A stretch of 40,893 nt of DNA from an uncultured Gammaproteobacteria bacterium. GTDB taxonomy: Bacteria; Patescibacteriota; Patescibacteriia; 2-12-FULL-60-25. Made by a program: the position numbers and the translations under genes. Below the pieces are notes generated by a model. That model did not search any database. It was not told where the DNA came from and was given only the letters and a program-made list of their open reading frames with translations. Within the stretch, counting starts at the first letter, position 1; every line of letters begins with the position of its first letter. The stretch lies in assembly GCA_964513705.1 (NCBI GenBank), contig CAZENZ010000001.1, forward strand, positions 1 to 40,893, written 5' to 3'. Positions 258-40,299 of the stretch are shown piece after piece.

Positions 258-902
258 ATGGATCTTCCATCTTCGAGCACATCTCTTCCTGTATCCGAAC
301 CGCCGCGTGATCGCCGCAAAGCGAGTATTAAGTTTGCATTAGAGCTCCTTCAGATCTTGGCGATTTCGCTCGCCATTATCATTCCTGTTCGTTACTTCCT
401 TATTCAACCGTTCTACGTGAAGGGGGCGAGCATGGAGCCGAATTTCTTCGATCACGAATATCTCATCATCGATGAGCTGAGTTATCGTCTGAATGATCCT
501 CAGCGTGGCGACATCGTTGTTTTTAAGTATCCAAAAGATCCGACCCAGTATTTCATTAAGCGCGTGATTGGCATGCCTGAGGAGACGGTTGAAATCATTG
601 ATGGCAAGGTTCGTATCTACAATAAAGAGCATCCAAATGGGTTTTTTCTCGATGAAACTGGCTACATCGACGGCGTCTTTACGAGTAGTCGTCAGATCCA
701 GCCACTCAAGAAAGGTCAGTACTATCTGATGGGAGACAATCGTCCGGCGAGCTTGGATTCTCGTATTTTTGGTCCGGTGGAGCGTGACTTTATTGTGGGG
801 AAGGTTTTGTTACGTGGTTATCCGGTTGATCGTTGGAAAGTCTTTAAGTCGTTTACCTATCCCGCACCGTCCGCGACGCATAGCTCGACAACTGCCTCAT
901 AA
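258..902 (+). CDS. lepB: Signal peptidase I (S26 family)
   Basis: N-terminal TM helix, then the catalytic Ser box GASMEPNF. Also KRVIGMPEETVEI (Lys box) and GDNRPASLDSR, the classic LepB boxes. Confidence 0.9.
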   Translation: MDLPSSSTSLPVSEPPRDRRKASIKFALELLQILAISLAIIIPVRYFLIQPFYVKGASMEPNFFDHEYLIIDELSYRLNDPQRGDIVVFKYPKDPTQYFIKRVIGMPEETVEIIDGKVRIYNKEHPNGFFLDETGYIDGVFTSSRQIQPLKKGQYYLMGDNRPASLDSRIFGPVERDFIVGKVLLRGYPVDRWKVFKSFTYPAPSATHSSTTAS

Positions 903-3211: not shown

Positions 3212-5146
3212 ATGCTTGAGAAAGGTTGCAGGAGCGTCACAGCCGCTATGTCAGCACCCGTACGATTATTCGCCCGGGTGTTGCTAGCGGCTGTGTTCGT
3301 GCTCGCGCTTGTTTGGACGTTGCCCGCGACCGTCCACGCGCAATCTGCCCCAGCCCCCGACGCAGCGGCTCAGTTGAGTGATGCGGCGACCGCCGCTGGT
3401 GTCGATGGATCGGTGTCGCTCATGACGCTGATTGGTCGTATCATAAACGTGATTTTCGGATTCTTGGGGGTGATTTTGCTTGGGTATATTTTGTACGCGG
3501 GATACCTGTGGATGACGGCACAGGGCGATCCGAAACAGGTCCAAACAGCAAAAGACACCATTCGTAATGCCATTATTGGATTGGTCATCTTTGCTTCTTC
3601 GTTTGCGATTGTGAGTTTTATTCTTGCGCAGCTTGCGGGAGTTGCGACCGGTGAAGGGTTATTTGGAACTGGAGGGGGTGATGACTTGGGATTGAGCGGA
3701 TTCCCTGATCGTGCTGGTGCGTTGGGCGATGTCATTCGTGATGTTTATCCAATGCCTGGTTCACGTGATGTCCCACGCAACACCAGCATCATGGTGACAT
3801 TTGCGCAACCGATCAAAATCGATTCGTTTATTCGTGGTTATGACGATCATGGTACGCCGGGTGATTTGAGCGACGATGTTGCAACGAGTACGCGTATTGG
3901 GCTGAACACGGATAATATTCGCATTTATCGCACTTCTGAAGGACGCACGCGTGCGCTTACAACGGAGCAAGTTCGTGTGCGCTTTACCCCAGATCGTCTG
4001 ACATTCGTGATGCGTCCAGTTGAGTATCTTGGGAGTTCGGTCGAGCCACAAGACTACACGGTTGAACTTACGGGTGGTCCAACGGGGATCAAACTGGAAG
4101 ATGGATCGGCGGTATTTCAGGGTCGTGCGTCGCGTGGATATCGTTGGGCTTTCCAAGTTTCAACGGTAGTAGATCTCACCCCGCCAAAAGTAGTGAGTGC
4201 GATTCCTGCCTCCGGTGGAAGATATGCGCCAAATATCATCGTCCAGGTCAACTTCAATGAAGCAGTTGATCCGACGAGCGCGGCTGGGCTTGTGCGTGAT
4301 GGTGGAGCGGGCTTCGATAACATTGAAGTCTCTGCTCGACCGTTGGCTGGAGGCGCTTCAGTTCGTCCCGCGGGTGAATTCAAAGTTTCGAATGCCTACA
4401 CCACGGTTGAGTTCATGACGAACTTGGCCTGTGGAGTGAATAGCTGCGGTCGACAAATCTTCTGTCTGCCATCGGATTCCGCGATTCGTGTGGATGTGAA
4501 AGCGGCGACATTGGAAACAGCAAGTAGTTCACAGGCAGCGATTGTACGTGGGTTATATGATGGAGTTGTAGATGTCGCGAACAACTCACTCGATGGAAAT
4601 GCTAATGATCGTGCGCAGGGTCCACCGGCTGATAACTACACCTATAACTTTACAACGCTCACGGATCCCGATCGAAGTGCGCCGTTCATTCGAGCCTTTG
4701 TGCCGGCGCCAGATACGGGACTCATCCCGGTAGATCAGATTCCGTCGGCTGATTTTAATGGGATCCTTCAGGCATCTACTGTGAACTCGGGGAATATCAA
4801 ATTATTGTTGAATGAGCCACCAACCGATACGTTCTGGTTCCGTCCACGTATGGTGAACGTCGTAGCAGGGCTGCCAGTAACGATTGGTCAGCCGGCTTCA
4901 TCCAGTCGTGCTTTGATTGACCATCGTGTCTACGCTGCCGCAACACCACGGTTTGCGCCGGAGTACTATCCACAGTTTGGTTCAGGCGTGCAGAATATCT
5001 ATCAGAACTGCTTCCATCCAACGTCGTCCGATAACTCAACAAGTGAATGTCGTGGAACGCCGGATCGGCCAAACTGTTGCTTTGTGGAAGGTGTTCCGAC
5101 GCCAAGTGCGAGCGCTTGCCCTTATCCTAATCCTTCACGGCCATGA
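3212..5146 (+). CDS. Exported protein: signal peptide + T4SS-pilin-like module + Gly linker + Big_5/SbsA-type Ig-like domains + Cys-containing C-terminal region
   Basis: The likely true start is ATG 3248, with AGGAG at 3230-3234, giving MSAPVRLFARVLLAAVFVLALVWTLPATVHA|QS. The pilin-like module is LIGRIINVIFGFLGVILLGYILYAGYLWMTAQGDPKQVQTAKDTIRNAIIGLVIFASSFAIVSFIL. Ig-like segments carry the Big_5 signature (YPMPGSRDVPRNTSIMVTFAQPIKIDSF; SAIPASGGRYAPNIIVQVNFNEAVDPTS). The stop overlaps the next start (ATGA at 5143-5146). Confidence 0.85.
   Translation: MLEKGCRSVTAAMSAPVRLFARVLLAAVFVLALVWTLPATVHAQSAPAPDAAAQLSDAATAAGVDGSVSLMTLIGRIINVIFGFLGVILLGYILYAGYLWMTAQGDPKQVQTAKDTIRNAIIGLVIFASSFAIVSFILAQLAGVATGEGLFGTGGGDDLGLSGFPDRAGALGDVIRDVYPMPGSRDVPRNTSIMVTFAQPIKIDSFIRGYDDHGTPGDLSDDVATSTRIGLNTDNIRIYRTSEGRTRALTTEQVRVRFTPDRLTFVMRPVEYLGSSVEPQDYTVELTGGPTGIKLEDGSAVFQGRASRGYRWAFQVSTVVDLTPPKVVSAIPASGGRYAPNIIVQVNFNEAVDPTSAAGLVRDGGAGFDNIEVSARPLAGGASVRPAGEFKVSNAYTTVEFMTNLACGVNSCGRQIFCLPSDSAIRVDVKAATLETASSSQAAIVRGLYDGVVDVANNSLDGNANDRAQGPPADNYTYNFTTLTDPDRSAPFIRAFVPAPDTGLIPVDQIPSADFNGILQASTVNSGNIKLLLNEPPTDTFWFRPRMVNVVAGLPVTIGQPASSSRALIDHRVYAAATPRFAPEYYPQFGSGVQNIYQNCFHPTSSDNSTSECRGTPDRPNCCFVEGVPTPSASACPYPNPSRP
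3422..3640 (+). other. T4SS-pilin-like (TrbC/VirB2-type) two-helix module of the 644-aa protein
   Basis: Two hydrophobic helices flank a short polar loop, YAG(Y/F)LWMTAxGD...KAxKTIRNAIIGL. This matches my memory of Pfam T4SS_pilin (PF18895), which is common in CPR genomes. Confidence 0.6.
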
Positions 5147-8100
5147 ACTTTCGTCGCCTTTTCTGTTTGTTGGGGCTAGTCCTCGCCATAGGCGGGGTTT
5201 TAGCCTTTTTGCCGGCGACACCGGTCATGGCTCAGGTGGATGCTGGATTTCAGGAGGTTGGAGCCGCCGCACAGCTGGGCACAGCTGATCCAAGAATTAT
5301 CGCTGCGCGTATCATTAATATTTTCTTGGGAACGCTTGGTACGATTCTGTTGTGTCTGGTGTTGTATGCGGGGTTTCTCTGGATGACGGCGGGTGGTGAT
5401 GCGGAGAGAGTAGAAAAAGCCCAGAAGACGATTCGCAATGCGATTATTGGGCTCATTATCATCGTGTGTTCCTGGGGATTCGTTACTTTCATTTTGAATA
5501 AGTTACTCGATGCAACGCGCGGAAGTGGGGGATTTGTTGCGACGAGTGATAACGGAGGAGGCGGTGGCGAATTAGGTGCAGCCGGTGGATCATTAGCGTT
5601 TAATGTTCGCTCGATCACGCCGTCTGGACCGATCCGTATTCGCAATGCGGAAGTGCGTTTCTTGTTGAGCCGTGAAGTTTTGGCGAGTTCTGCGACGAGC
5701 TCGATCACCGTTGTTCGTGCCTCGGATGAGCAGCCGGTCGAAGGTACAGTTACGGTGGCGGATAGTTTGGTGACGTTTGTTCCAACTCAAGCCTGTCCTG
5801 CTCCTAACGGAAACCGTAAGTGTTTTGCTGAAAATACCGATTACATTGCGCGCGTTGGACGGGGCTTACGCTCACGTTCAGGGCTCACGGTTGCTTGTGG
5901 GAGAACGGCGCCGCCATGTGAGGGGCGGTTCCGTACGGGGAGCTTGGTAGACGTAAGTTCGCCAAATTCCGCTATCACAAATCCACTCGATGGGCAGGGA
6001 ATTCCTCTGGGAGATACGGTACGTGTCACCGTTCGTTCCAGGGACGATGGAGGTATCTCCATCACAGAGGTGTTAGTGGATGGTCGCATGATCGGTCGTG
6101 ATGCGGCGACTGCTACTACCACTCCTCTTGAATATGACGCGACCGTGAACTGGGATACGCGTGGAGTTGCAACTGGTACGCATCGCATCGAAGCCCGGGT
6201 GTTCGATATCGATTCAAACAGTGTGACGACCACCCCGATTACGGTGGCTGTGCGTCCACGAAGTTATTTCAATGGCGTTCAAGATAATGGGGCTCCTGAA
6301 GTTGGTTGTGGTGGTCCTGGTCAGCCATTGTGTGTGGGGAGCGCTTGTACGACGGGTCGTTCTTGTTTGAGTGGTCTGTGCGAAGGGGGCGTATGTCGTG
6401 CGCGTCCTGAAACAGAAACAGGATGTGGCGGTCCTGGGCAGCTTGCCTGTATTGGGGCTGTCTGTACGCGTGGAGATGGTTGTTTGAGCGGACGGTGTGA
6501 AGGCGGTATTTGTCGCGGGCGAGGTGAAACGGGTGTCGACTGTGGGGGCGCAGGAGGTGGCGCGTGTGCCGGAGCGATGTGTACGCGTGGAGTCGATTGT
6601 GCAAGTGGTTTGTGTGTCGCTGGACGATGTATCGAGCAGCCAATTATTGGATCGTTCAATCCTGTAAATGGTCGCCCTGGTACCTATGTCACGATTAGTG
6701 GGGTGAATTTTGGAACTACCACCGGTCAGGTGACGTTTGGTGGCCGTCTAGCAACTGCGCCAGCCTCCTGCGGATCATCGACGGCTTTCTGGTCGCCGAC
6801 GCAGATTGTGGTGGCTGTTCCAGAAGGGGCGACTACTAGCACGATTCAGGTGACGCATGCCACGAATCGCATGACGGACGCCACGAATGACGAACGTGGT
6901 CCGCGTTTGGCTGATTTCGTAGTAAATGGTGTGGCACGTCCGGGGTTGTGTGTCATTCGTCCAGGAACCGGAACGGTCGGTGATCGCTCGCGTTTGGCGG
7001 TGGCTGGCGTGAACCTGGGTAGTACCGCGGGGCGATTGTTTTTCAACGATCATGATGTGGCGATTAGTGCCTGGCGTCCAACGGGTGTGGATCTGACAGC
7101 GCCACTTGTCCCACCGGGTGCCTATTCGGTCCGTGCTCGTATTGGAGAGCTGGAATCAAATCCGGTTGGTTTTCATTTTAACGATCGCGTCATTACCGCG
7201 CCTCCGATTATTGATCAGCTGCGTCCGGCGACTGGTACGGTTGGATCGTATGTCACGCTGCTTGGTCGAAACTTTGGAAGTGGCGGTCGTGTGTTCTTTC
7301 GCAATCCGTTGACCAACGCCATTGGTGAGGCGGATACGCGCTTCCCGGCGCAGTGTGGAAGCACTTTCTGGGCGGATACATCTGTGATGATCAAGGTGCC
7401 ACGTGCGTTGCGTGGCGGATTGGGGGAGGAGCAGGCGGTGCGTGGAGGGGCATACGAAATTTATTTGCAGCGTGATGGGATTACGCAGAGTAATCGTGTT
7501 CCATTTACGGTATTTGATGGTGCGCCTGGCCCAGGTGTGTGTTCTATTCAGCCAATTGCGGGTCCGGTTGGAACGGGAGTCACGATTTATGGTGAGCGGT
7601 TTGGTTCAGTGGTCGGTGCCGTATCCTTTGCAGGGACCACGTCCTCGCGTCCTTTAGCGTTCTTGTCGAGTGAAAGCTGGCGCGATGGAGAGATTCGTAC
7701 GCGTGTGCCAACCGGTGCGTTGACAGGCGGAGTGCGCGTTACGGTGGCCGGTCAAGACTCGAATGATGCTTTTTTCTCGGTAGCGAACTGTGTTAGTACG
7801 CCGGGTATTTGTGGACCTTCCCTTGCCTGTTGTCCGGACGGAAGCTGCGCGGTGGCTGGTACTTGCCGCGCGTTGGGAGTGGCTACGAGTACTTTTGCCT
7901 GGAGATCGTCAACCGGACGGTTGTATCAGTCACCACGTGTGGTGGAAGAGTGTAATAACGAATTACCACCTTCTCCAAGCCCACGGAGCCTTTCGACCTG
8001 TGTGAATGCTCAGGCAGTTGTACGCTTTACGACACATATTGAAGCTTCGACGATTAATCCGAGTAATGTGATTATCCGTCGCTGTACCGGAAGAACCGGC

Positions 8101-16146: not shown

Positions 16147-17091
16147 ATGGACCTTCAATCACCCGTCAATCTTCCAACGCAGCCAGCGCCTGCCTCGCCA
16201 CCGGTACCACCGATTAACTCTCCAGTACCTCCACCGATTCAGGCGATGCCAAGCGCGCCGGCGGCTATGCCGAGCGCTGCTGCGGATGATATGTTTTCGG
16301 GAGTAGATAAGGTTCCCGCTCCTTCTCCGATGTCTGCGCCACAGCCAATGTCTGCGCCTGTTCCTCCGATCGTTGCGAGCCAGGCTCCGATGCCTGCGAC
16401 TCCGGCAGCGCCTTCTCCTATGGCGCCACAGCGTGTGTTATCTCCTTTACCGGAGCCGCATCATCCACCGGTGTTGCACTACGTGTTGATTGCCTTGGCA
16501 GTAGTTGCGGTGTTGGGTGTGATTGCGGGAGGGGTTTGGTTTTTCGCCATTCGCCGTCCAGCTCAGCAGGTGATGGAGGCGTTGCCAGTTGCACCGGTTG
16601 CGACGTCAACGAATGATGCTATGACACCTTCTTCGGCTGCACCGATGGTTCCAGCGGATGAGCCTGTTGGAGGTACGACGGAATTCGGTGAGCCAGAAGA
16701 AATTCCTTCCAAGCCAGTCGTGACGCCTCCAGAGGGCGCCACGGTTCCACTGCCATCTTCGATTGATCCAAATGGTGTAGGACTGGGAGCCCCGACTTCA
16801 GCCACGGCAGATCAGGGTACGCCGCAGCCTGCCCCTGTTCAACCAGCTCAACCGGTTGATCAAGATGCGGATGGTCTGTCAGACGCGCGTGAAATCGAGT
16901 TAGGAACGAATCCAGCGCTCGCAGATACGGATAGCGATGGACTCACGGATGGAGATGAAGTACTAAAGCATCGAACCAACCCTCTTGTTCCAGATACGGA
17001 TGGTGATGCATATCCTGATGGGGTCGAGGTGCAAAAAGGCTTTAACCCACTTGGTCCAGGTAAGTGCGCAAATCCATCGTGTACGTTGTAG
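16147..17091 (+). CDS. Single-pass membrane protein: Pro-rich N-terminal region, TM helix, TSP3 repeats, Cys-loop C-terminal tail
   Basis: The ~110-aa N-terminal region is Pro/Ala/Met-rich (MSAPQPMSAPVPP...). TM helix: VLHYVLIALAVVAVLGVIAGGVWFFAI. TSP3 repeats: DQDADGLSDARE, DTDSDGLTDGDE and DTDGDAYPDGVE. The protein ends GFNPLGPGKCANPSCTL. Confidence 0.8.
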   Translation: MDLQSPVNLPTQPAPASPPVPPINSPVPPPIQAMPSAPAAMPSAAADDMFSGVDKVPAPSPMSAPQPMSAPVPPIVASQAPMPATPAAPSPMAPQRVLSPLPEPHHPPVLHYVLIALAVVAVLGVIAGGVWFFAIRRPAQQVMEALPVAPVATSTNDAMTPSSAAPMVPADEPVGGTTEFGEPEEIPSKPVVTPPEGATVPLPSSIDPNGVGLGAPTSATADQGTPQPAPVQPAQPVDQDADGLSDAREIELGTNPALADTDSDGLTDGDEVLKHRTNPLVPDTDGDAYPDGVEVQKGFNPLGPGKCANPSCTL

Positions 17092-17109: not shown

Positions 17110-18525
17110 ATGGCACTTGCACCTTCTTCATCATCTCCTACTGCAGCCGGAGTGGCTGTCAAAAAAATGCCTGAGATCATCACGATCCCAGAGCAGTTCT
17201 ATGGAGTTGCCTTGAAATTGAAGGCGCTCACTTCCGCGGAAAAAGATGAGGCGGCACGTGTGCCGCCTCCGGCGCCTGCTGCTCCGAATCCAGCTGCCTT
17301 GATCCGTCCACCAGAAGCGCGTCGCACACCATGGGCAATGATCGGTGTTGTCGCAGGGGTGATTGTGCTGAGTGGGGGAGGATTTGTGTACTTCAACCGA
17401 GACGCCTTGTTTCGTAAGCAGGTTCCGGTGGTGGTCGTCGAACCAAAACCGATTCCTCAGGCGCCAAGCGGCTTATCAGCGCTGCCCAGTCAGGGAGCGA
17501 TTTCCTTGGCATGGACAGATGCGGCGAGTAACGAGCAGGGCTATCACATTGAGCGCAAAGATGGGGCGCTTGATTCAACCAATCCGTTTACCCGTATTAC
17601 AACGTTGCCCGCGAATAGCAATGCGTTTATTGATGTGACCGTGCAGCCGAGCACCTCTTATAGTTATCATGTGATCGCGACGGGTGAAGGTGGGGATTCG
17701 GCTCCATCGAACGATATGTCGGCGACGACTCCAGCATTACCGACACCGGAAGTGCCCAAGCCAACTCTTCCACCTGGCGGTCTTGACACCGACTCGGACG
17801 GTCTGACCGATGTTGAAGAGTCTTTGTATAATACAAACGCACAAAGACCTGACAGTGATGGTGATCGTTTTCTCGATGGCAACGAAGTGTTTCACTTGTA
17901 TAATCCAGCGACGGCGGCACCTGGTAAGCTCCTTGAATCGGGTCTCGTTCGTTCTTTTACCGCGGCGAGTGGTTGGGTGATGTATGTTCCGGCATCATGG
18001 ACCACTGGACCTGATCCGAGCGATGCGACCCGTGTCTTGCTCGAGACGGGCAGGGGCGAACGTTTCATTGTTTCTGTTGAATCCAATCCATCGAAACAAG
18101 ACGTGATTCCATGGGTTTCGGCACGCATTAATCAGCCCGTAGAAGCGCTCGGTGAGTTCACTACAAAGGGTGGTTTGCGCGGGGTGTATGCTCCTGATCG
18201 TATGCAAGCTTGGCTCGCCTGGGGGGATGCGGTGTTTCATATTACGTTCGATCTTCAGGCGCAGCCATTCGTCAACTTCCGCACGACCCTGGAAATGATG
18301 CTAAACTCTCTTGCGTTGAATGGAGCGGCGATTATTCCGACAACGCTTACCCCGTCTAACTCTGGCCCTGGATCGCTTTTGAATCTCCCGACGAGTTCAA
18401 CGCCAGATATGCTTTCCACGACCGCTACAACGACGGCCACTACTACAACAACGACAACACCGGTCACTGTAACCAATACAACCACCTCTACGCCGCCTGC
18501 GGCCAGCACTTCTACCACCCCATGA
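17110..18525 (+). CDS. Single-pass membrane protein: FN3 domain + TSP3 repeats + unassigned globular domain + Thr-rich tail
   Basis: TM helix: WAMIGVVAGVIVLSGGGFVYF. FN3 signature: PQAPSGLSALPSQGAISLAWTDAASNEQGYHIERKDG...YSYHVIATGEGGDSAPS. TSP3 repeats: DTDSDGLTDVEE and DSDGDRFLDGNE. The tail is TTATTTATTTTTTTPVTVTNTTTSTPP. The stop overlaps the ybeY start (ATGA at 18522-18525). Confidence 0.8.
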   Translation: MALAPSSSSPTAAGVAVKKMPEIITIPEQFYGVALKLKALTSAEKDEAARVPPPAPAAPNPAALIRPPEARRTPWAMIGVVAGVIVLSGGGFVYFNRDALFRKQVPVVVVEPKPIPQAPSGLSALPSQGAISLAWTDAASNEQGYHIERKDGALDSTNPFTRITTLPANSNAFIDVTVQPSTSYSYHVIATGEGGDSAPSNDMSATTPALPTPEVPKPTLPPGGLDTDSDGLTDVEESLYNTNAQRPDSDGDRFLDGNEVFHLYNPATAAPGKLLESGLVRSFTAASGWVMYVPASWTTGPDPSDATRVLLETGRGERFIVSVESNPSKQDVIPWVSARINQPVEALGEFTTKGGLRGVYAPDRMQAWLAWGDAVFHITFDLQAQPFVNFRTTLEMMLNSLALNGAAIIPTTLTPSNSGPGSLLNLPTSSTPDMLSTTATTTATTTTTTTPVTVTNTTTSTPPAASTSTTP

Positions 18526-25379: not shown

Positions 25380-26195
25380 CTAGAAAGGCAGGCGGCGGGT
25401 TTTTGTGGCTCCTGTATTTGTTAGGTACTTCACTTCGATCAGGCGGTCATTCACCCAACGAGCGCTCTTCCAGGTTTGTATAACGCTTTCTTCGCCTGCT
25501 GCGTTATATGGTCGTGTCAGGCTGGGTTCGAATTCGTTTGAGAAGGCCGCTTTTATTTTGCTCAGCATCACAGCTTGTTTGCTTGTGAGCGTAATTCCCA
25601 TAATGGCTGAATTTGCCTCGCAACCAGCTCCGCCGCAGCTATTCGGAACAAAGAAGGCACGTGTTCCGGCCTTATTCCAATACAGTTTGCGACCACTTGG
25701 ATTCACGATGGTTGAGAACTGACGTGTATCCAAGTTGAAGACCATTGTCTGAGCGGATTGAGCGCCGCCAACGCCATCGTAGAGGTTGTTCCAGGTATTA
25801 TTCTGAATCACTAAAAAGTGCTTAAGCGTTCCGTTCACGACACGTGGGGTGTACCACAGGATGCCATAATCCTGGGGCCAAGAGCCTTGCTCATCTAGCG
25901 AAGGCATTTGAGCTGGTAGGCGTGTGTCTACCACTTGTGTAGAGGTTTTTCCATTCCATGTTACTTGCAGTGTCGACTGGCCATCACACACCTGTTTTGG
26001 TGCTACACCTTCTTCGATGATGCGTGTATCACGAAGGCTGCCATTGCAACTTACGGCGAACGTTCCATCCTTGCCTTTGTGTGTGAAGTTGAAGCTGACG
26101 TATGGGCTGGGTGTTTCAGCGGCAAATACAGGCGGTACGGCGAGTGGACTCATTACGAACAAGGTGCTCGCAACAAGAGCGAAGAGGGTCTTCAT
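25380..26195 (-). CDS. Secreted hypothetical protein (271 aa)
   Basis: The start is moved to the internal ATG at 26195, giving a clean signal peptide MKTLFALVASTLFVMSPLAVPPVFA|AE. The track's upstream extension overlaps the LysE gene. I recognise no domain. Confidence 0.65.
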   Translation of the reverse strand: MKTLFALVASTLFVMSPLAVPPVFAAETPSPYVSFNFTHKGKDGTFAVSCNGSLRDTRIIEEGVAPKQVCDGQSTLQVTWNGKTSTQVVDTRLPAQMPSLDEQGSWPQDYGILWYTPRVVNGTLKHFLVIQNNTWNNLYDGVGGAQSAQTMVFNLDTRQFSTIVNPSGRKLYWNKAGTRAFFVPNSCGGAGCEANSAIMGITLTSKQAVMLSKIKAAFSNEFEPSLTRPYNAAGEESVIQTWKSARWVNDRLIEVKYLTNTGATKTRRLPF

Positions 26196-26212
26196 ATGTC
26201 CCCAGTATAGCT

Positions 26213-26851
26213 TTAAATCAGCCACCAGACGAATGTTTGAACCACTCGGAAGAAGCCAAACGCAGCAAAGGCCAGAATTACGCTGCCTGAAACGAGGTTC
26301 ACGCCGCGCAAAAAGCCTGGGGTGATGTAGGCGCGGATTTTTCCAACCATCCCACATAAAAAGGCCCACCAAGTAGCTGATCCAAGAAACACGCCAAGTA
26401 CCATAATGTGGCCAGAGGTGGGCGAATGTTCAAGATTTTTCAAACCAAACTCTGTGAAAATAACCCCAAAGGTTAAAATGGTGATTGGGTTGGCTAACGT
26501 TAGTAAAAACGTTGAAAAGAAGTCACCGACCAAGTCTTCGAGTTTTGAAGGAACTTCTTGGAGGGATGTGCTTGCTTTGAGTGTGCGGATCCCAAGGTAG
26601 AGAAGGAAGAGGCTTCCAATGAGTCGAAGCCAGAAACGATGTTCGACGAGTCCATTGGAGACGAGTGTGACACCAAAGGCGGCGATGAACCCGTAAATAC
26701 TATCGGCCAGAGCTGCGCCTAGTCCAGACACGATGCCAGACAAGCGACCTTGGTGGAGTGTGCGACGAATGCAAAGAGCCCCGATGGGGCCAAGGGGTGC
26801 GGCGATGGCAATTCCGATAATCAGTCCTTTGAGGAATACCGGCACGTGCAT
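26213..26851 (-). CDS. LysE/RhtB-family amino-acid exporter
   Basis: A 212-aa protein with about six TM helices. The N-terminus FLKGLIIGIAIAAPLGPIGALCIRRTL...GLGAALADSIY is the LysE-type signature (PF01810). Confidence 0.85.
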   Translation of the reverse strand: MHVPVFLKGLIIGIAIAAPLGPIGALCIRRTLHQGRLSGIVSGLGAALADSIYGFIAAFGVTLVSNGLVEHRFWLRLIGSLFLLYLGIRTLKASTSLQEVPSKLEDLVGDFFSTFLLTLANPITILTFGVIFTEFGLKNLEHSPTSGHIMVLGVFLGSATWWAFLCGMVGKIRAYITPGFLRGVNLVSGSVILAFAAFGFFRVVQTFVWWLI

Positions 26852-27113: not shown

Positions 27114-27641
27114 ATGGACTGGACATTTGATAGGACGAGTCCGCGCTTCGGCATCCCGACCGCGCACCGACTCGACATGCACGTCTTCGGGATCCCGAAT
27201 GAAGAGGATCTTACCGCCTACGTCCGTGGAGCGGATCACCAGACGGTCATCCAGCGTGATCAAGCGGTCACTGCAGGAAGGGCGCTCGTCTCGCTCGACG
27301 ACCTGCAGCAGATTGTGCTCTACGAGACGCAGATGAAGCTCGAGCGCCAAGAGGGCGACCGTGTCTACGGACTTAGCCAACAGGAGCTTGGTTCGTTGCA
27401 GCGTGATGGTCGGCTTGCTGCCTGTCTGACCGCACCGAGGACCAGGCAGTACGTCATGCGCATGGACTGGTGTGCACTCGAGCGTCTCCTGACGCGTTTC
27501 ATCGGTCCGAACTTCGGGTGCCTGGGCGATTCAGGGGTGGTGGCGCCTGGCGACACTCATCGTTGGCACTTCTATCCCTTCCATCCCGGGAATCGGCTCG
27601 TCATGCTCGTGAAGAGCGGCGGTCTGATCTACCCGGAGTGA
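27114..27641 (+). CDS. Hypothetical cytoplasmic protein (175 aa) in GC-rich islet 1
   Basis: AAGGAG at 27100-27105 lies 8 nt before the ATG. The frame has G/C-biased third positions. I recognise no motif. The antisense and alternative-frame ORFs here are shorter and lack an SD. Confidence 0.6.
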   Translation: MDWTFDRTSPRFGIPTAHRLDMHVFGIPNEEDLTAYVRGADHQTVIQRDQAVTAGRALVSLDDLQQIVLYETQMKLERQEGDRVYGLSQQELGSLQRDGRLAACLTAPRTRQYVMRMDWCALERLLTRFIGPNFGCLGDSGVVAPGDTHRWHFYPFHPGNRLVMLVKSGGLIYPE

Positions 27642-29255: not shown

Positions 29256-29310
29256 TGTGCGTTGATTTTAGCAGGAATTTCTTTTAATTGCTCGAGTTAG
29301 TCCATCAGCT

Positions 29311-29375
29311 GTTTGAAAACGAAGAGCGCACCGTCGAAGGAGTCGGGCGCGAGCACTCGCCTTGCGGCGGTGCGC
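29311..29375 (-). terminator. Candidate structured 3' end / terminator of the GC-rich lipoprotein gene
   Basis: On the minus strand, gcgcaccg (29375-29368) pairs with cggtgcgc (29333-29326) and is followed by tcttcgttttc. A second small hairpin, ctcgcg-gtg-cgcgag, lies at 29384-29398. Confidence 0.3.
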
Positions 29376-29410
29376 CCTTCTCCCTCGCGGTGCGCGAGAG
29401 TCGTTGTTTC

Positions 29411-29827
29411 TCACTCGCTTCCGAGTGGGTAGATGTTCGCCTCGGATGTGCCGGCGATCTGGCAGGTCATGGCGACGTCGCGGTCCCAGGCGAGGCCGAT
29501 CGCGTCGCGCTGCCTGCGCCAGACGTCCCACTGCGCGAGCTCGTTGGAGATCTCGTTCGCGTGCGCGCAGGCGTTGCGGCAGGCGTCCACACCCAGCTCG
29601 CAGGCCAGGCGGATCTGGGCCTGCAGGCCGTCCAGGGCGAGCGTGGCGTTGACCGTGTCTCCCTGGAGCCGCAGCCGCTGACTCCGCGAGATCTGGGCGG
29701 TGATGCCGCGGTCGATCGAGGGGCCGATGTTGCCGGCGCAGCCGGTCGCGGCGAGCGCGAAGGCGACGACGAGCAGGGCGCGGAGGGCGAGCGAGCGGAC
29801 GGTGTTGCGGAAGGTGCGCGTGTTCAT
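29411..29827 (-). CDS. Small putative lipoprotein (138 aa) in GC-rich islet 2
   Basis: ATG at 29827 with GGAG 9 nt upstream. The signal peptide and lipobox-like site are MNTRTFRNTVRSLALRALLVVAFALAATG|C. The mature part has further Cys residues (LACELGVDACRNACAH...MTC). Third codon positions are very G/C-rich. Confidence 0.6.
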   Translation of the reverse strand: MNTRTFRNTVRSLALRALLVVAFALAATGCAGNIGPSIDRGITAQISRSQRLRLQGDTVNATLALDGLQAQIRLACELGVDACRNACAHANEISNELAQWDVWRRQRDAIGLAWDRDVAMTCQIAGTSEANIYPLGSE

Positions 29828-30109
29828 GGGGTTCGTCTCCAGGCTCACGGGAAATGGGTTGAGGTTGTCCGCGAGCTTCCAAGCGTTCTCTTCTATACGA
29901 AAAGAAGATGTGGAAGCACACGTGTTTACAATCTTTTATTATAAAAGTCGGTTCCTACGACCAGACACGATCTCTGACTGTTAACTGGTATTAAATTATC
30001 ACATTTTCGACATTTTGTCAACCCTCTTTGACCAGCTCTTTTTTACGTTTTTCTGCCATATCTCGTTGCCACAGATCACGTTGTGTGCGGTACACGACGA
30101 CACATAATC

Positions 30110-32428: not shown

Positions 32429-33442
32429 ATGAAACCACCAAACGTTGAGCGGGTCTGTCCCGTAGAGCATGGAGTTCCTCGTAATCTGGCAGAGGGGGCA
32501 GATATCCGTACCAAGCGTGTTCAAGAGTTTCGCGAACAATTGTTAGAGACAGATGGGGCGTATGCGCTCGATCCGTCCCAAGACGCGGCTACGCTCTTGG
32601 ACTTGAGATATGCCACTGAGAGTATTTATTTGAATTACTTTTGGGAGTTTTTTATTGATCAGCACGCCTGTGAGAGAAAGATGTCTTCAACTCGTTTTTG
32701 GGAGTCCTTGTTTCAAGAGGTACAAACCGCCATTAAAAGCCGAGAAGAGCTTTTCGATCACGCGTTAAGAACTGCGAGGCGAGGAAGAGGCGACGCGCTG
32801 CCGAATACGCTCTTAGAAAACATAGATCGCATTTTGGATGAATTGGGGAGGATTCCGGCGACTGAATCTACGACCTATCCTGGATCGGCAGATATTAATA
32901 CCTTTGGGACCAAGCTTTTGCAGGCATTACACGAACGATATGAGAAGGAATACGCTTGCTCGATGACGGCTGAGATGTTCGCGCGTTTTAGAGCGAATCC
33001 ACTCATGGAAAAGACGCTCATATATTGGCAGTACAACTCACGGGAAGGGTCTGCGGCTATTAGAGAGGTTACAGATCTGACGGTGCACCGTAAGACGCCG
33101 GGTTCTATGGCGCGTATGAGCCTAGAGAGTTGTGTTATAGATCGTGAAACAGGCGCCTTTGGGTTTTCGCCGCACACAATTGAACGAGCGAGAGCTTTTA
33201 TTGCTCAGAAGAGGGCGTTGACGAAGGAGCGCCCAATGGCTCAGCGAAATTGTCCCGTAGTCTACTCGCAACACTTCCATGAAATGTGGTCTTGGTTAAC
33301 GGGACTCGTTGCGTATCAGTTGTATGGAGAGCCGTATCCAACGCGGGAACGAGTAGCGGTTTCACGCGTGCCGACTGCGTTCAAAACAAAAATGCAGGCA
33401 GAACTGGCTCAGGTTGTGTATCCACGTCTTCCAAAAGTGTAG
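32429..33442 (+). CDS. Hypothetical protein (337 aa), no recognisable domain
   Basis: A long ORF 29 nt downstream of the ABC exporter on the same strand, with no TM helix or signal peptide. Coding-like codon usage matches the flanking genes. Confidence 0.6.
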   Translation: MKPPNVERVCPVEHGVPRNLAEGADIRTKRVQEFREQLLETDGAYALDPSQDAATLLDLRYATESIYLNYFWEFFIDQHACERKMSSTRFWESLFQEVQTAIKSREELFDHALRTARRGRGDALPNTLLENIDRILDELGRIPATESTTYPGSADINTFGTKLLQALHERYEKEYACSMTAEMFARFRANPLMEKTLIYWQYNSREGSAAIREVTDLTVHRKTPGSMARMSLESCVIDRETGAFGFSPHTIERARAFIAQKRALTKERPMAQRNCPVVYSQHFHEMWSWLTGLVAYQLYGEPYPTRERVAVSRVPTAFKTKMQAELAQVVYPRLPKV

Positions 33443-39141: not shown

Positions 39142-39624
39142 TCAAGAATATTTCTCCCGTAACCATTCAGATACATATGTTCCGTACCTTTCTCGCGTCC
39201 TTTGGGGGACATGCTCGTATGCTCCGATGATGCCTCGACAGATTGCGGTTCCGCATTTGCACGCAAGTCGCCAGTCGCTGTCTTCGGTCATGTCGTAGTC
39301 CCAAGTTAGTTCTTCGCCACGCTTGATAGGTTTCATGGTAACCAGGGTGGATGTGCCTCGGATGCCACAATTCGGATCGCAGGAGTGGTTAATGTAGCGG
39401 GCGAATCCGCGACTCTCTTTCCATGTATGCTCACCGATTTGAATTGCATGATCTGCAATGTCTTTTGGGAGATCTGTGCATTTTTGTGCCTGAAAAATCT
39501 CACCATCAAATTCAGCGATCACGGTGTCTTGGGCGATGTCTTCAATAGCGTATAAGGCTTTACCAAAGCCTTCACGCTCACCAATCCGAATATTTGGGTT
39601 ATCCATATGGGTAGTGTAATCCAT
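39142..39624 (-). CDS. SET-domain protein-lysine methyltransferase with a post-SET Cys cluster
   Basis: FARYINHSCDPNC (the NHSC motif), ELTWDY and CKCGTAIC (CxCx4C post-SET). The start is uncertain: GTG 39642, ATG 39624 or ATG 39606. Confidence 0.8.
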   Translation of the reverse strand: MDYTTHMDNPNIRIGEREGFGKALYAIEDIAQDTVIAEFDGEIFQAQKCTDLPKDIADHAIQIGEHTWKESRGFARYINHSCDPNCGIRGTSTLVTMKPIKRGEELTWDYDMTEDSDWRLACKCGTAICRGIIGAYEHVPQRTRERYGTYVSEWLREKYS

Positions 39625-39718
39625 TAAAAACACGACGCCCACCTTTGGCAGGTGACGCCGCGGGTGGGGATTGCGTGTGGCAGGACTGCCCGGAGGTGGG
39701 TTGTCGCGGCGCGCTGGC

Positions 39719-40150
39719 TCAGTCGTCGCCGCGCTCGAGCTGCTTCAAGTCGTACTTGCGCTTGAAGTAGTAGAGCGAGTAGCAGCCGAGCATCGCCCAC
39801 CAGGCCCAGCCGAAGCCGAACCGGTAGAGGGCGAGGAACACGGCGACCACGACCATGATCCACTCCTTCTTGAGCGCGGACCAGATGGCCTGGCCGTAGG
39901 ACTCGGCGCCCCACATGCGGAGACTCTGCTTCGCCTCGTAGATGAACTTCACCATCACGAGGAGCCCGAAAGCTGCGGGCGCGGTGAACCACGGGAGGTG
40001 CACCGCGAGGAGCGCCTTGAGGGCGATCTCCCCGAGGAAGATGCCCCAGGCTGCTTGGTGGAAGCGCTTCTGCGTCCGCGCGTAGTTTGCGAAGGGCATG
40101 AGGCGCTGCATCTGCTTGCTGGTCAATTTGCCAAGGTCGATTGGCGGCAT
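39719..40150 (-). CDS. Hypothetical small membrane protein (143 aa) in GC-rich islet 4
   Basis: The start is placed at ATG 40150 (MPPIDLGKLTSKQ...). Three hydrophobic helices are present: AAWGIFLGEIALKALLAVHL, APAAFGLLVMVKFIY and WIMVVVAVFLALYRFGFGWAWWAMLGCY. Third codon positions are G/C-rich. The longer overlapping ORFs on both strands are GC artefacts. Confidence 0.55.
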   Translation of the reverse strand: MPPIDLGKLTSKQMQRLMPFANYARTQKRFHQAAWGIFLGEIALKALLAVHLPWFTAPAAFGLLVMVKFIYEAKQSLRMWGAESYGQAIWSALKKEWIMVVVAVFLALYRFGFGWAWWAMLGCYSLYYFKRKYDLKQLERGDD

Positions 40151-40271
40151 GGAACTCGTCACTCTCTCGCCCGAAGGCGTACAAAGGGGTGTTCGGAGCA
40201 GCGGTATTGCCGACTCCCGACCGGTCTGAATAGTGTTTTTCAGGTCCATCAGGAAGCGGTAACGAAAGATC

Positions 40272-40299
40272 ATCATACAATAAAATAGCGAAAAGTCAA
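40272..40299 (-). promoter_or_regulatory. Near-consensus sigma70-like promoter pointing at the islet-4 membrane-protein gene
   Basis: On the minus strand: TTGACT (40299-40294), a 16-nt spacer, then TATGAT (40277-40272). Confidence 0.4.

Follow-up and report, generated by a model that had tools for sequence, protein, structure and literature searches.

Results

A coupled gene pair with pilin-family N-termini

The window analysed here, the whole stretch of 40,893 nucleotides from contig CAZENZ010000001.1 (assembly GCA_964513705.1), derives from an ultrasmall, uncultivated bacterium of Patescibacteria/Uhrbacteria type and carries two adjacent genes, named A and B in this study, in which an N-terminal module of PF18895, a pilin family of type IV secretion systems (T4SSs), is joined to a long C-terminal passenger. 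Gene A (3212..5146, + strand) encodes a modular pilin of 644 aa, identified by its open reading frame (ORF), its translation and its matches to PF18895 and Big_5. Gene B (5143..15483, +), likewise defined by ORF and translation, encodes a modular pilin of 3446 aa. The ATG of B and the TGA of A share an ATGA at 5143..5146 (+), exactly where the first-pass annotation, made from the sequence alone, had located the overlap of the two genes. Gene A has an alternative start, the ATG at 3248 (Met13), which has an AGGAG upstream and would give a protein of 632 aa; it is the start coordinate of the first-pass annotation, and it is possibly the true start of the gene. No further copies of the module besides those of A and B were found within the window.

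As had been noticed earlier, both modules are preceded by AxA-type signal peptides. The signal peptide of A covers residues 1-43 (3212..3340, +), with a hydrophobic stretch at 11-43, a modelled helix at 15-35 and a putative signal peptidase I site VHA|Q (A43/Q44), and that of B covers residues 1-30 (5143..5232, +), with a hydrophobic stretch at 2-32 and the site VMA|Q (A30/Q31). A43 and Q44 are invariant across 72 A-family sequences, and the AxA-Q pattern is also found in small pilins. The prepilin-peptidase motif of class III signal peptides (G|F/M-xxxE) is absent from A and B, and so is a C-terminal LPXTG with a hydrophobic tail; B has an internal LPLTG at residue 1308 only.

The module of A (residues 69-145; 3416..3646, +) consists of a helix, the loop MTAQGDPKQVQTAKDTIRN and a second helix, and matches PF18895 at residues 69-137. 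The module of B (approximately residues 48-125; 5284..5517, +) matches PF18895 at residues 61-117 with 34.3 bits and is 55% identical to that of A. Each protein contains three hydrophobic stretches, which correspond to the signal peptide and the two helices. The outer flanks of the helices are acidic (-3/-4 in A and -3/-1 in B), and the loop between them has a net charge of +1 in both proteins. When A was modelled with AlphaFold2 using a 72-sequence alignment, the mean pLDDT was 83 and the pTM 0.71, and the hairpin was formed by helices 70-102 and 107-145 with a pLDDT of about 80-85. Another protein of the family, P0001, has two tandem hairpins behind one signal peptide; each hairpin would therefore lie in the membrane as N-out/C-out, with the result that A and B would have extracellular passengers. 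Processing by signal peptidase I is likewise predicted from sequence.

When the N-termini of A and B were compared by BLASTP, 38 of 69 positions were identical (55%) and 70% were positive, with 0 gaps and an E value of 1e-22. The two modules had been described as near-identical; they are clearly homologous, far beyond chance, but with an identity of only 55% that description was too strong. The similarity stops at the Gly-rich linkers, and a homology of A and B past the module was rejected, because the passengers resemble each other weakly and at the level of Ig domains only (best E 0.001).

The assignment of the module to the T4SS-pilin family was borne out, since both whole proteins, at 38.1 bits for A and 32.6 bits for B, exceed the PF18895 gathering score (26.6 bits), and the N-terminal fragment or isolated module of B reaches 34.3-39.4 bits. 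The related model NF045849 (cutoff 40 bits) is barely passed by A (40.7 bits) and not by B (28.5 bits), and the module of B matches CagC with an E value of 0.085 only. The link of A and B to TrbC/VirB2 appears to be transitive only; it runs through the small homologue P0012, which passes both PF18895 and PF04956 (TrbC/VirB2; 29.7 bits against a cutoff of 27.9). A profile of the module gives 59 bits to a 151-aa Mbov_0395 family pilin-like conjugal transfer protein on a Pontibacillus plasmid, whose gene lies 4 kb upstream of those for a VirB4-like ATPase and a peptidoglycan hydrolase. When the modules were searched against plasmids of cultured organisms by tblastn, no TrbC/VirB2 protein was matched, and the sole match was a protein of this Mbov_0395 type.

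Taken by itself, the module has as its nearest relatives 32 small proteins of 109-230 aa, all with PF18895, and those with a source name come from Uhrbacteria or Falkowbacteria. The modules of A and B align to 30 small pilins without gaps through YAG(Y/F)LWMTAQGD...KAK...IIGL, and the consensus of A, B and the small pilins is nearly the same (YAG[YF]LWMTAxGD...kAk...NAIIGL). Using a profile of the small-pilin alignment against 1.84 billion cluster representatives, we found 91,095 representatives of the family at E <= 1e-3, and the family is accordingly very large. The best 150 matches of this search were mostly multi-module proteins and could not be used as a census of passenger lengths. Many PF18895 proteins consist of 2-17 tandem hairpins in one polypeptide (P0153-P0300), and such "polypilins" include P0169 (1775 aa, 17 module matches), P0210 (1147 aa, 11) and the above-mentioned P0001 (230 aa, 2). 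Whether polypilins are cut into single pilins or persist as multi-pass proteins bears on whether the PF18895 family forms pili.

Linkers and passengers

In A, the hairpin is followed by a flexible Gly-rich linker (approximately residues 146-165; 3647..3706, +), with a pLDDT below 50 at residues 142-162 and a conservation of 0.34. The passenger of A (3707..5143, +) consists of Ig-like beta domains and a Cys-rich C-terminal knob, and its model is all-beta from residue 175. It was matched by Foldseek to Ig domains of L,D-transpeptidases, the S-layer protein SbsC, cadherins and titin in the PDB. The Big_5 match of A is significant at residues 322-397, and six cysteines (C407, C412, C418, C600, C622 and C623) are invariant in the A family.

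The linker and the passenger of B, about 3300 aa long, occupy 5518..15480 (+) and contain 171 Cys, as mapped by Pfam domains and a conservation profile. Gly-rich linkers and Big_5 domains had been described after both modules. The linkers are present in both proteins and Big_5 is present in A, but the first Big_5-like stretch of B (residues 154-248) stays below the threshold (18.9 bits against 23.6) and is followed by Big_7 at residues 274-351. The Pfam families found in B are PF18895, Big_7, four TIG, Big_5, Cys-rich DUF4215 repeats and CarboxypepD_reg. From the N-terminus, the protein is composed of the signal peptide, the module, the Gly linker, the sub-threshold Big_5-like stretch, Big_7 and a variable Cys-rich insert. 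Four TIG domains, a Big_5, a long stretch without family matches, another Big_5 and a conserved central domain follow, and the end is formed by Cys-rich "CGNG/CGDG" repeats (DUF4215, myxo_disulf_rpt), CarboxypepD_reg and a variable C-terminal part of 300 aa. All of the domain types recognised in the passengers are typical of extracellular proteins.

The central conserved domain of B (approximately residues 2190-2500; 11710..12642, +) reaches an identity of 0.60 at residues 2201-2250 across orthologues. It is also found at the N-terminus of proteins of about 900-1200 aa (P0302, P0304-P0313) from Falkowbacteria and other Patescibacteria, several of which carry He_PIG Ig domains, and it is 33-43% identical to P0302 and P0305. 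The AlphaFold2 model of residues 2130-2560, built with 13 usable homologues, was poor (pLDDT 58), and Foldseek with this low-confidence model gave nothing below an E value of 0.01. A 30-sequence profile of the domain gave no PDB match and no informative Pfam family, which leaves the domain without an assigned fold. Two candidate identities of the domain were rejected. First, a likeness of its helix "KLQRDLKRMADL...GKYP...WPSW...DPLN" to the head of a type IV pilin or GspG was unsupported by Pfam, the PDB profile search and Foldseek. Second, a PLDc_2 match (18 bits against a cutoff of 27) looks spurious, with the H and K positions of the HKD motif unmatched.

Conservation and covariation of the modules

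In A, the identity is 0.64 in the module, 0.52 in the passenger and 0.31 in the signal peptide. In B, residues 51-100 show an identity of 0.60, which is the maximum of the protein together with the equally conserved residues 2201-2250, while most other windows lie at about 0.2-0.5 and the distal 300 aa are least conserved (0.12-0.28). The hairpin is thus among the most conserved parts of both proteins and follows the consensus of the free pilins, including the loop, which suggests that it is probably more than an anchor.

Across 74 genomes, the identity of the A module to the B module was 0.52 within a genome and 0.48 between genomes. For more closely related genomes the identity was higher, going up from 0.435 to 0.525, and the observed value was not equalled in any of 10,000 permutations. 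Such a rise is not expected of an old duplication whose copies evolve independently; co-evolution, occasional gene conversion or a shared amino-acid composition could each cause it. In a few genomes, the modules of A and B are mutual nearest neighbours with an identity of up to 0.86, which points to occasional gene conversion between the two feet.

Passengers are the exception among module-bearing proteins

We checked how often members of the family carry passengers in 80 metagenome loci that had been picked by similarity to the module alone and that contained 194 complete module-bearing ORFs. The C-terminal tail was shorter than 100 aa in 143 of these ORFs, 100-300 aa in 3, 300-1000 aa in 39 and longer than 1000 aa in 9. 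A further 28 ORFs were incomplete and already showed tails of more than 300 aa. The 143 short tails show that free members of the family are small, in line with the earlier statement on VirB2/TrbC pilins, and they make the large passengers a real departure from the norm of the family. With 644 and 3446 aa, A and B also fall outside the small single-domain format of PF18895 pilins (about 110-180 aa).

Nearly all of the sampled loci belong to two classes. The first consists of arrays of small pilins with up to about nine genes (one or two on the shortest contigs), and the second consists of an A-B pair in a housekeeping block, usually in the order S26-HisRS-S21-YqeY-A-B. A variant lineage within the second class has an A' of about 890 aa and a B' of about 1600-2000 aa. 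The passenger-bearing pilins of this clade are essentially the one conserved A-B pair.

Distribution and gene neighbourhood of the pair

A relative of A is encoded by at least 522 genomes of Uhrbacteria (class ABY1, Patescibacteria), counted as one genome per species. At least 327 homologues of A have about 580-680 aa and the PF18895 and Big_5 architecture. Nearly all of the best 120 homologues fall in this length range and, where named, belong to Uhrbacteria or the Patescibacteria group; in public databases, the homologues are called "pilin", "Ig-like domain-containing protein" or "MMCAP2_0565 family pilin-like...". The pairing of A and B was examined in 80 loci from the one-per-species scan and three earlier ones. 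In practically all of them, A (about 600-680 aa) is directly followed by a module-bearing and co-linear B (about 3000-3500 aa). Of 68 two-gene loci, 34 offer an ATGA or GTGA overlap, and 60 have a gap of -4 to +15 nt between the genes. The proposed coupling of the two genes therefore holds up, with the overlap present in the window and the tight spacing kept in orthologous loci. B is co-linear over its full length with 33 complete orthologues, and an identical A protein is encoded on a second, independent 8-kb contig. As the same fused architectures and lengths recur across species and assemblies, the fusions are genuine, old and vertically inherited, and the A-B pair is part of the vertically inherited core genome of Uhrbacteria-type Patescibacteria.

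In seven loci (L003, L037, L043, L045, L053, L057 and L061), an extra small pilin of 123-167 aa lies between A and B. Its module is nearer to that of B (identity 0.46-0.54) than to that of A (0.33-0.46), and it shares the "DPR" motif of B. This resemblance points to an origin of B from a free pilin, or of a free pilin from B.

The block around the pair has the fixed order SPase I-HisRS-S21-YqeY-A-B, and longer loci continue past B with TSP3-repeat membrane proteins, YbeY, DAGK, FtsA and FtsZ. The signal peptidase I gene (258..902, +) matches Peptidase_S26 and TIGR02227 (132.7 bits), and such a gene is found upstream of the pair in 65 of 83 sources (82 loci and the window). Its product is likely the processing enzyme for the AxA|Q sites, the link being one of position only. 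We also considered this S26 peptidase as a TraF, but it fails the TraF model and is an ordinary signal peptidase I. Downstream of B, three genes (15484-16131, 16147-17091 and 17110-18525, all +) encode single-pass membrane proteins with Ca-binding TSP3 repeats, as seen from TSP3_bac matches. They follow each other with gaps of 0-18 nt, and the first two proteins end in NPLGPG(R/K)CAxPxC. A TSP3 gene is found 3' of B in most loci that reach past the stop of B (15 of the same 83 sources). The TSP3 proteins are associated with the pair by conserved position only.

Several other features of these contigs were recorded. Five ORFs of the window with 175-337 aa have no Pfam family at E <= 0.01 (25380-26372, -; 27114-27641, +; 29268-29921, -; 32429-33442, +; 39624-40280, -). 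In the related locus L002, a second giant gene at 1-2186, whose product of 3289 aa has no recorded Pfam match, has its end about 8 kb upstream of A and B. Many related contigs, L005-L008, L015 and L020 among others, are titled "uncultured Gammaproteobacteria bacterium" yet carry the Uhrbacteria-type locus and synteny, and these labels look like placeholders or errors.

Relation of the pair to T4SS genes

A published T4SS census, in which Uhrbacteria are placed in class ABY1, allowed three genomes to be matched to pair-bearing loci, and VirB4 is reported for two of them, GCA_000996355.1 and GCA_002786495.1 (PMC12102498). For GCA_000996355.1, the entries in Table S3 of the census are VirB4, TrsD, T4CP and VirB3, and VirB2 is missing (PMC12102498). 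When we checked the locus of this genome (L068), A matched PF18895 with an E value of 3.7e-11 and full coverage of the profile, and B scored 26.0 bits. The passenger-bearing pilins thus seem to have escaped the census. According to the same source, pilin genes lie beside other T4SS genes (virB4, virB6 and trsD) in only about 58% of the assemblies (PMC12102498).

The first-pass annotation had held that a complete VirB/Trb operon elsewhere would make A and B ordinary pilin paralogues. VirB4 does occur elsewhere in pair-bearing genomes, but the second half of the statement does not follow, since a fixed passenger-bearing pair in the housekeeping block of at least 522 species-level genomes is not a set of ordinary pilin paralogues. 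Relatives also have arrays of small pilins from which a shaft could be built. Those of L085, L086 and L087, with 5-10 PF18895 genes, lie directly downstream of a gene for an SBP_bac_1 solute-binding protein, a neighbour that recurs and was not expected. Within 10 kb of these arrays, none of the called genes belongs to an annotated T4SS family.

Discussion

Proposed model and competing explanations

We propose, with moderate confidence, that A and B are modular VirB2-type (PF18895) pilins whose hairpins pack with pilins, and that B is displayed as an adhesin-like fibre. In this model, both proteins would be exported by Sec, cut by signal peptidase I at the conserved AxA|Q and left in the cytoplasmic membrane as N-out/C-out hairpins with the short basic loop in the cytoplasm. 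The C-terminus of each hairpin would lead through the flexible Gly-rich tether into an extracellular passenger. The passenger of A would be a short rod, made up of about four Ig-like domains and a Cys-rich knob, and that of B a fibre of about 3300 residues that consists of Ig-like domains and Cys-rich repeats and varies at its distal end. Produced by coupled translation, A and B would pack together through their hairpins, probably with small pilins too, and would carry their passengers as subunits located at the cap or the base of an oligomer or filament of pilins, or as sparse subunits within it. The earlier proposal of co-assembly in a stalk or membrane oligomer, in place of a conjugative pilus, is reasonable in view of the conserved module, although a pilus may be formed as well. 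B may then be shown as an adhesin-like fibre for contact with host cells, with A as its short partner. Extracellular display, co-assembly, polymerisation and the adhesive role are all what we infer from these features.

Several observations weigh against this model. First, a comparison with both PF18895 and PF04956 had been suggested, and only the former is passed; PF04956 gave no match to the modules of A and B up to an E value of 10. PDB sequence searches with A, B and the module profile found no solved pilin, and their matches were CGTase Ig domains for B and spurious "Pizza" repeats for the module. Foldseek of the full A model against the PDB gave Ig-domain matches only and no pilin match, and as these matches are dominated by the Ig domains, the search is uninformative on the hairpin in relation to VirB2/TraA. 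In the literature, the formation of pili by PF18895 proteins is suspected and their polymerisation undemonstrated (PMC12102498, PMC10633639, PMC12857230). Second, no T4SS families were found among the ORFs of the window, and a scan of about 165 related loci, a weak test with a single Firmicute VirB4 query, detected no VirB4-like ORF at distances of up to about 10 kb. The third genome matched to a pair-bearing locus, an incomplete metagenome-assembled genome of 745 kb, is VirB4-negative in the census (PMC12102498). Third, a passenger of about 3300 residues on each subunit is sterically incompatible with a helical shaft, which leaves a cap, a base or sparse subunits. In addition, the covariation of the modules within genomes may be a mere effect of composition, as the GC range of the clade is wide, or of gene conversion. 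The conservation of A throughout and the variability of B at its end only fit a structural envelope component equally well.

The hairpin may instead have been exapted as a plain two-helix anchor for envelope proteins, such as a scaffold that spans the wall or S-layer or an adhesin that is not part of a filament, with no polymer and no T4SS. We regard this explanation, the main rival of the model, as possible, although on the unlikely side. It accounts well for the lack of T4SS genes near the pair, both in the window and in the related loci, and for the position of the pair within a housekeeping and cell-division block. The passenger of A is like the Ig chains found in proteins of the S-layer and the wall, the conservation of A over its whole length is what a structural component would show, and the polypeptides with 2-17 hairpins show that the hairpin can be used as an ordinary multi-pass membrane segment. 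However, plain anchors usually evolve fast, and here the hairpin is most conserved and keeps the family motif and the loop. The covariation of the A and B modules within genomes and the maintenance of the same foot and tight coupling for two different passengers over hundreds of species also speak for more than an anchor.

A bolder reading, which we consider doubtful, makes the pair the cap, or the nucleating base, of a filament of VirB2 type built by a monoderm, or else a T4SS-independent stalk on a pilin foot. As a cap, a few copies of A and B, kept at a fixed ratio by translational coupling, would start or end a shaft of small PF18895 pilins. The fibre of B would then act as the adhesin for host contact, equivalent in function to VirB5 or PilY1, and would fill the place of the "missing adhesin" in the T4SS of Patescibacteria; no PrgB-like or conjugation-type adhesin was found in Patescibacteria by the census (PMC12102498). 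If the cap or the stalk were true, this would be the first modular VirB2-class pilin.

It is quite improbable, in our estimate, that A, B and the TSP3 proteins form a scaffold of the envelope or the division site, that is, a Ca-dependent surface lattice tied to growth or division and not to host contact, whose kinship to pilins would be historical only. The order A-B-TSP3-YbeY-DAGK-FtsA-FtsZ is conserved with near-zero intergenic gaps, the TSP3 repeats match models of CglD/MtsD-type Ca-binding repeats, and B is co-linear and conserved across 3300 residues, all of which speaks for such a lattice. On the other hand, gene order is weak evidence of shared function in compact Patescibacteria genomes, and the distal 300 aa are the least conserved part of B (0.12-0.28), as expected where a variable partner is met. 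The preservation of the pilin motif is also left unexplained by a scaffold.

Very unlikely is a role of the hairpin as a pilin-like export leader, used in secretion only, after which the passengers would be cleaved, released or re-anchored. The linkers behind the hairpin are flexible, Gly-rich and poorly conserved and could be protease sites, and the TrbC and VirB2 pilins of RP4 and Ti undergo C-terminal processing. However, the alignments show no conserved cleavage motif after helix 2, the neighbouring S26 enzyme is an ordinary signal peptidase I and not TraF, and neither A nor B has an LPXTG or another secondary C-terminal anchor.

Finally, we give virtually no credence to assembly or frameshift fusions or to members of a normal pilin array, since PF18895 genes do normally form arrays of small paralogues but both fused architectures occur with the same lengths in independent assemblies of at least 522 species, B is co-linear in 34 complete copies (the window and 33 orthologues) and A is identical on an independent contig, so that the artefact reading is refuted by the conservation across species.

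Taking A and B as modular pilins, the coupled pair looks like an undescribed way, belonging to the core genome, to mount a giant surface fibre on a pilin foot. The "modular pilin" principle, known from type IV pili, would thereby reach the T4SS class of pilins too, and the pair would be a candidate for the means by which ultrasmall bacteria of the Uhrbacteria type make contact with their hosts. A and B are also two protein markers that can be sought in metaproteomes and by cryo-electron tomography of enrichment cultures. In addition, HMM-based censuses that assume small pilins can miss passenger-bearing pilin genes.

Comparison with known systems

To our knowledge, VirB2-type pilins are small stand-alone subunits, and no description of VirB2-class pilins with large passengers was found in the searchable literature, where the pilins of Patescibacteria appear solely as small, array-encoded proteins. 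The closest known proteins are the VirB2-like PF18895 pilins of Patescibacteria, whose genes form arrays of 2-11 members that are no more than 54% identical, and a six-pilin array in a T4SS locus is essential in Southlakia epibionticum ML1 (PMC12102498, PMC10633639, PMC12857230). The census paper that describes arrays of 2-11 genes, by Quinonero-Coronel et al. (2025), contains no discussion of fused pilins (PMC12102498). A and B come from the same phylum and have the same module family, the Sec signal peptide with AxA|Q and the two helices with a short basic loop. They are also adjacent paralogues, with an identity of 55% compared with the array maximum of 54%. Unlike these pilins of about 110-180 aa, however, the hairpins of A and B carry about 480 and about 3300 residues that would be extracellular, and the genes lie in a housekeeping block away from virB4 as a fixed orthologous pair and not as a variable array.

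The TrbC, VirB2 and TraA pilins of diderm T4SSs (T-pilus and F-pilus) share with A and B the signal peptide followed by a two-helix hairpin, and a link to them exists via P0012. VirB2 and TraA pilins have the N-out/C-out membrane topology that is proposed here for A and B. The differences are that A and B have no direct PF04956 match and no match to a solved pilin, come from a monoderm host, have no VirB4, VirB5 or VirB6 gene nearby and carry large passengers. The Mbov_0395/MMCAP2_0565 pilin-like proteins of elements in Mollicutes and Firmicutes are related through NF045849, whose cutoff A just exceeds and B does not reach. Those proteins have about 150 aa and are encoded in T4SS clusters on mobile elements, whereas the genes of the pair are chromosomal, belong to the core genome and encode fusions with passengers.

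As a concept, the nearest to A and B are the modular type IV pilins of Streptococcus sanguinis, PilB with its vWA module and PilC, in which a pilin module capable of entering a filament is joined to a grafted C-terminal module and which are minor subunits with an adhesive module (PMC8179133, PMC9934059). However, the type IV pilins belong to an unrelated superfamily, in which the signal peptide is of class III, a prepilin peptidase is used and there is only one N-terminal helix, and their grafted modules are far smaller than the passenger of B. A and B can also be compared with PrgB of pCF10, thioester-domain adhesins, SiiE and the Mobiluncus adhesin, which are large extracellular Ig-rich proteins with a presumed role in contact between cells, in monoderms or by way of secretion systems. 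Unlike these PrgB-type or giant Ig-repeat adhesins, which depend on LPXTG and sortase or on a type I secretion system, A and B would be anchored N-terminally by a pilin hairpin, and B is a co-linear multi-domain protein and not a series of monotonous repeats.

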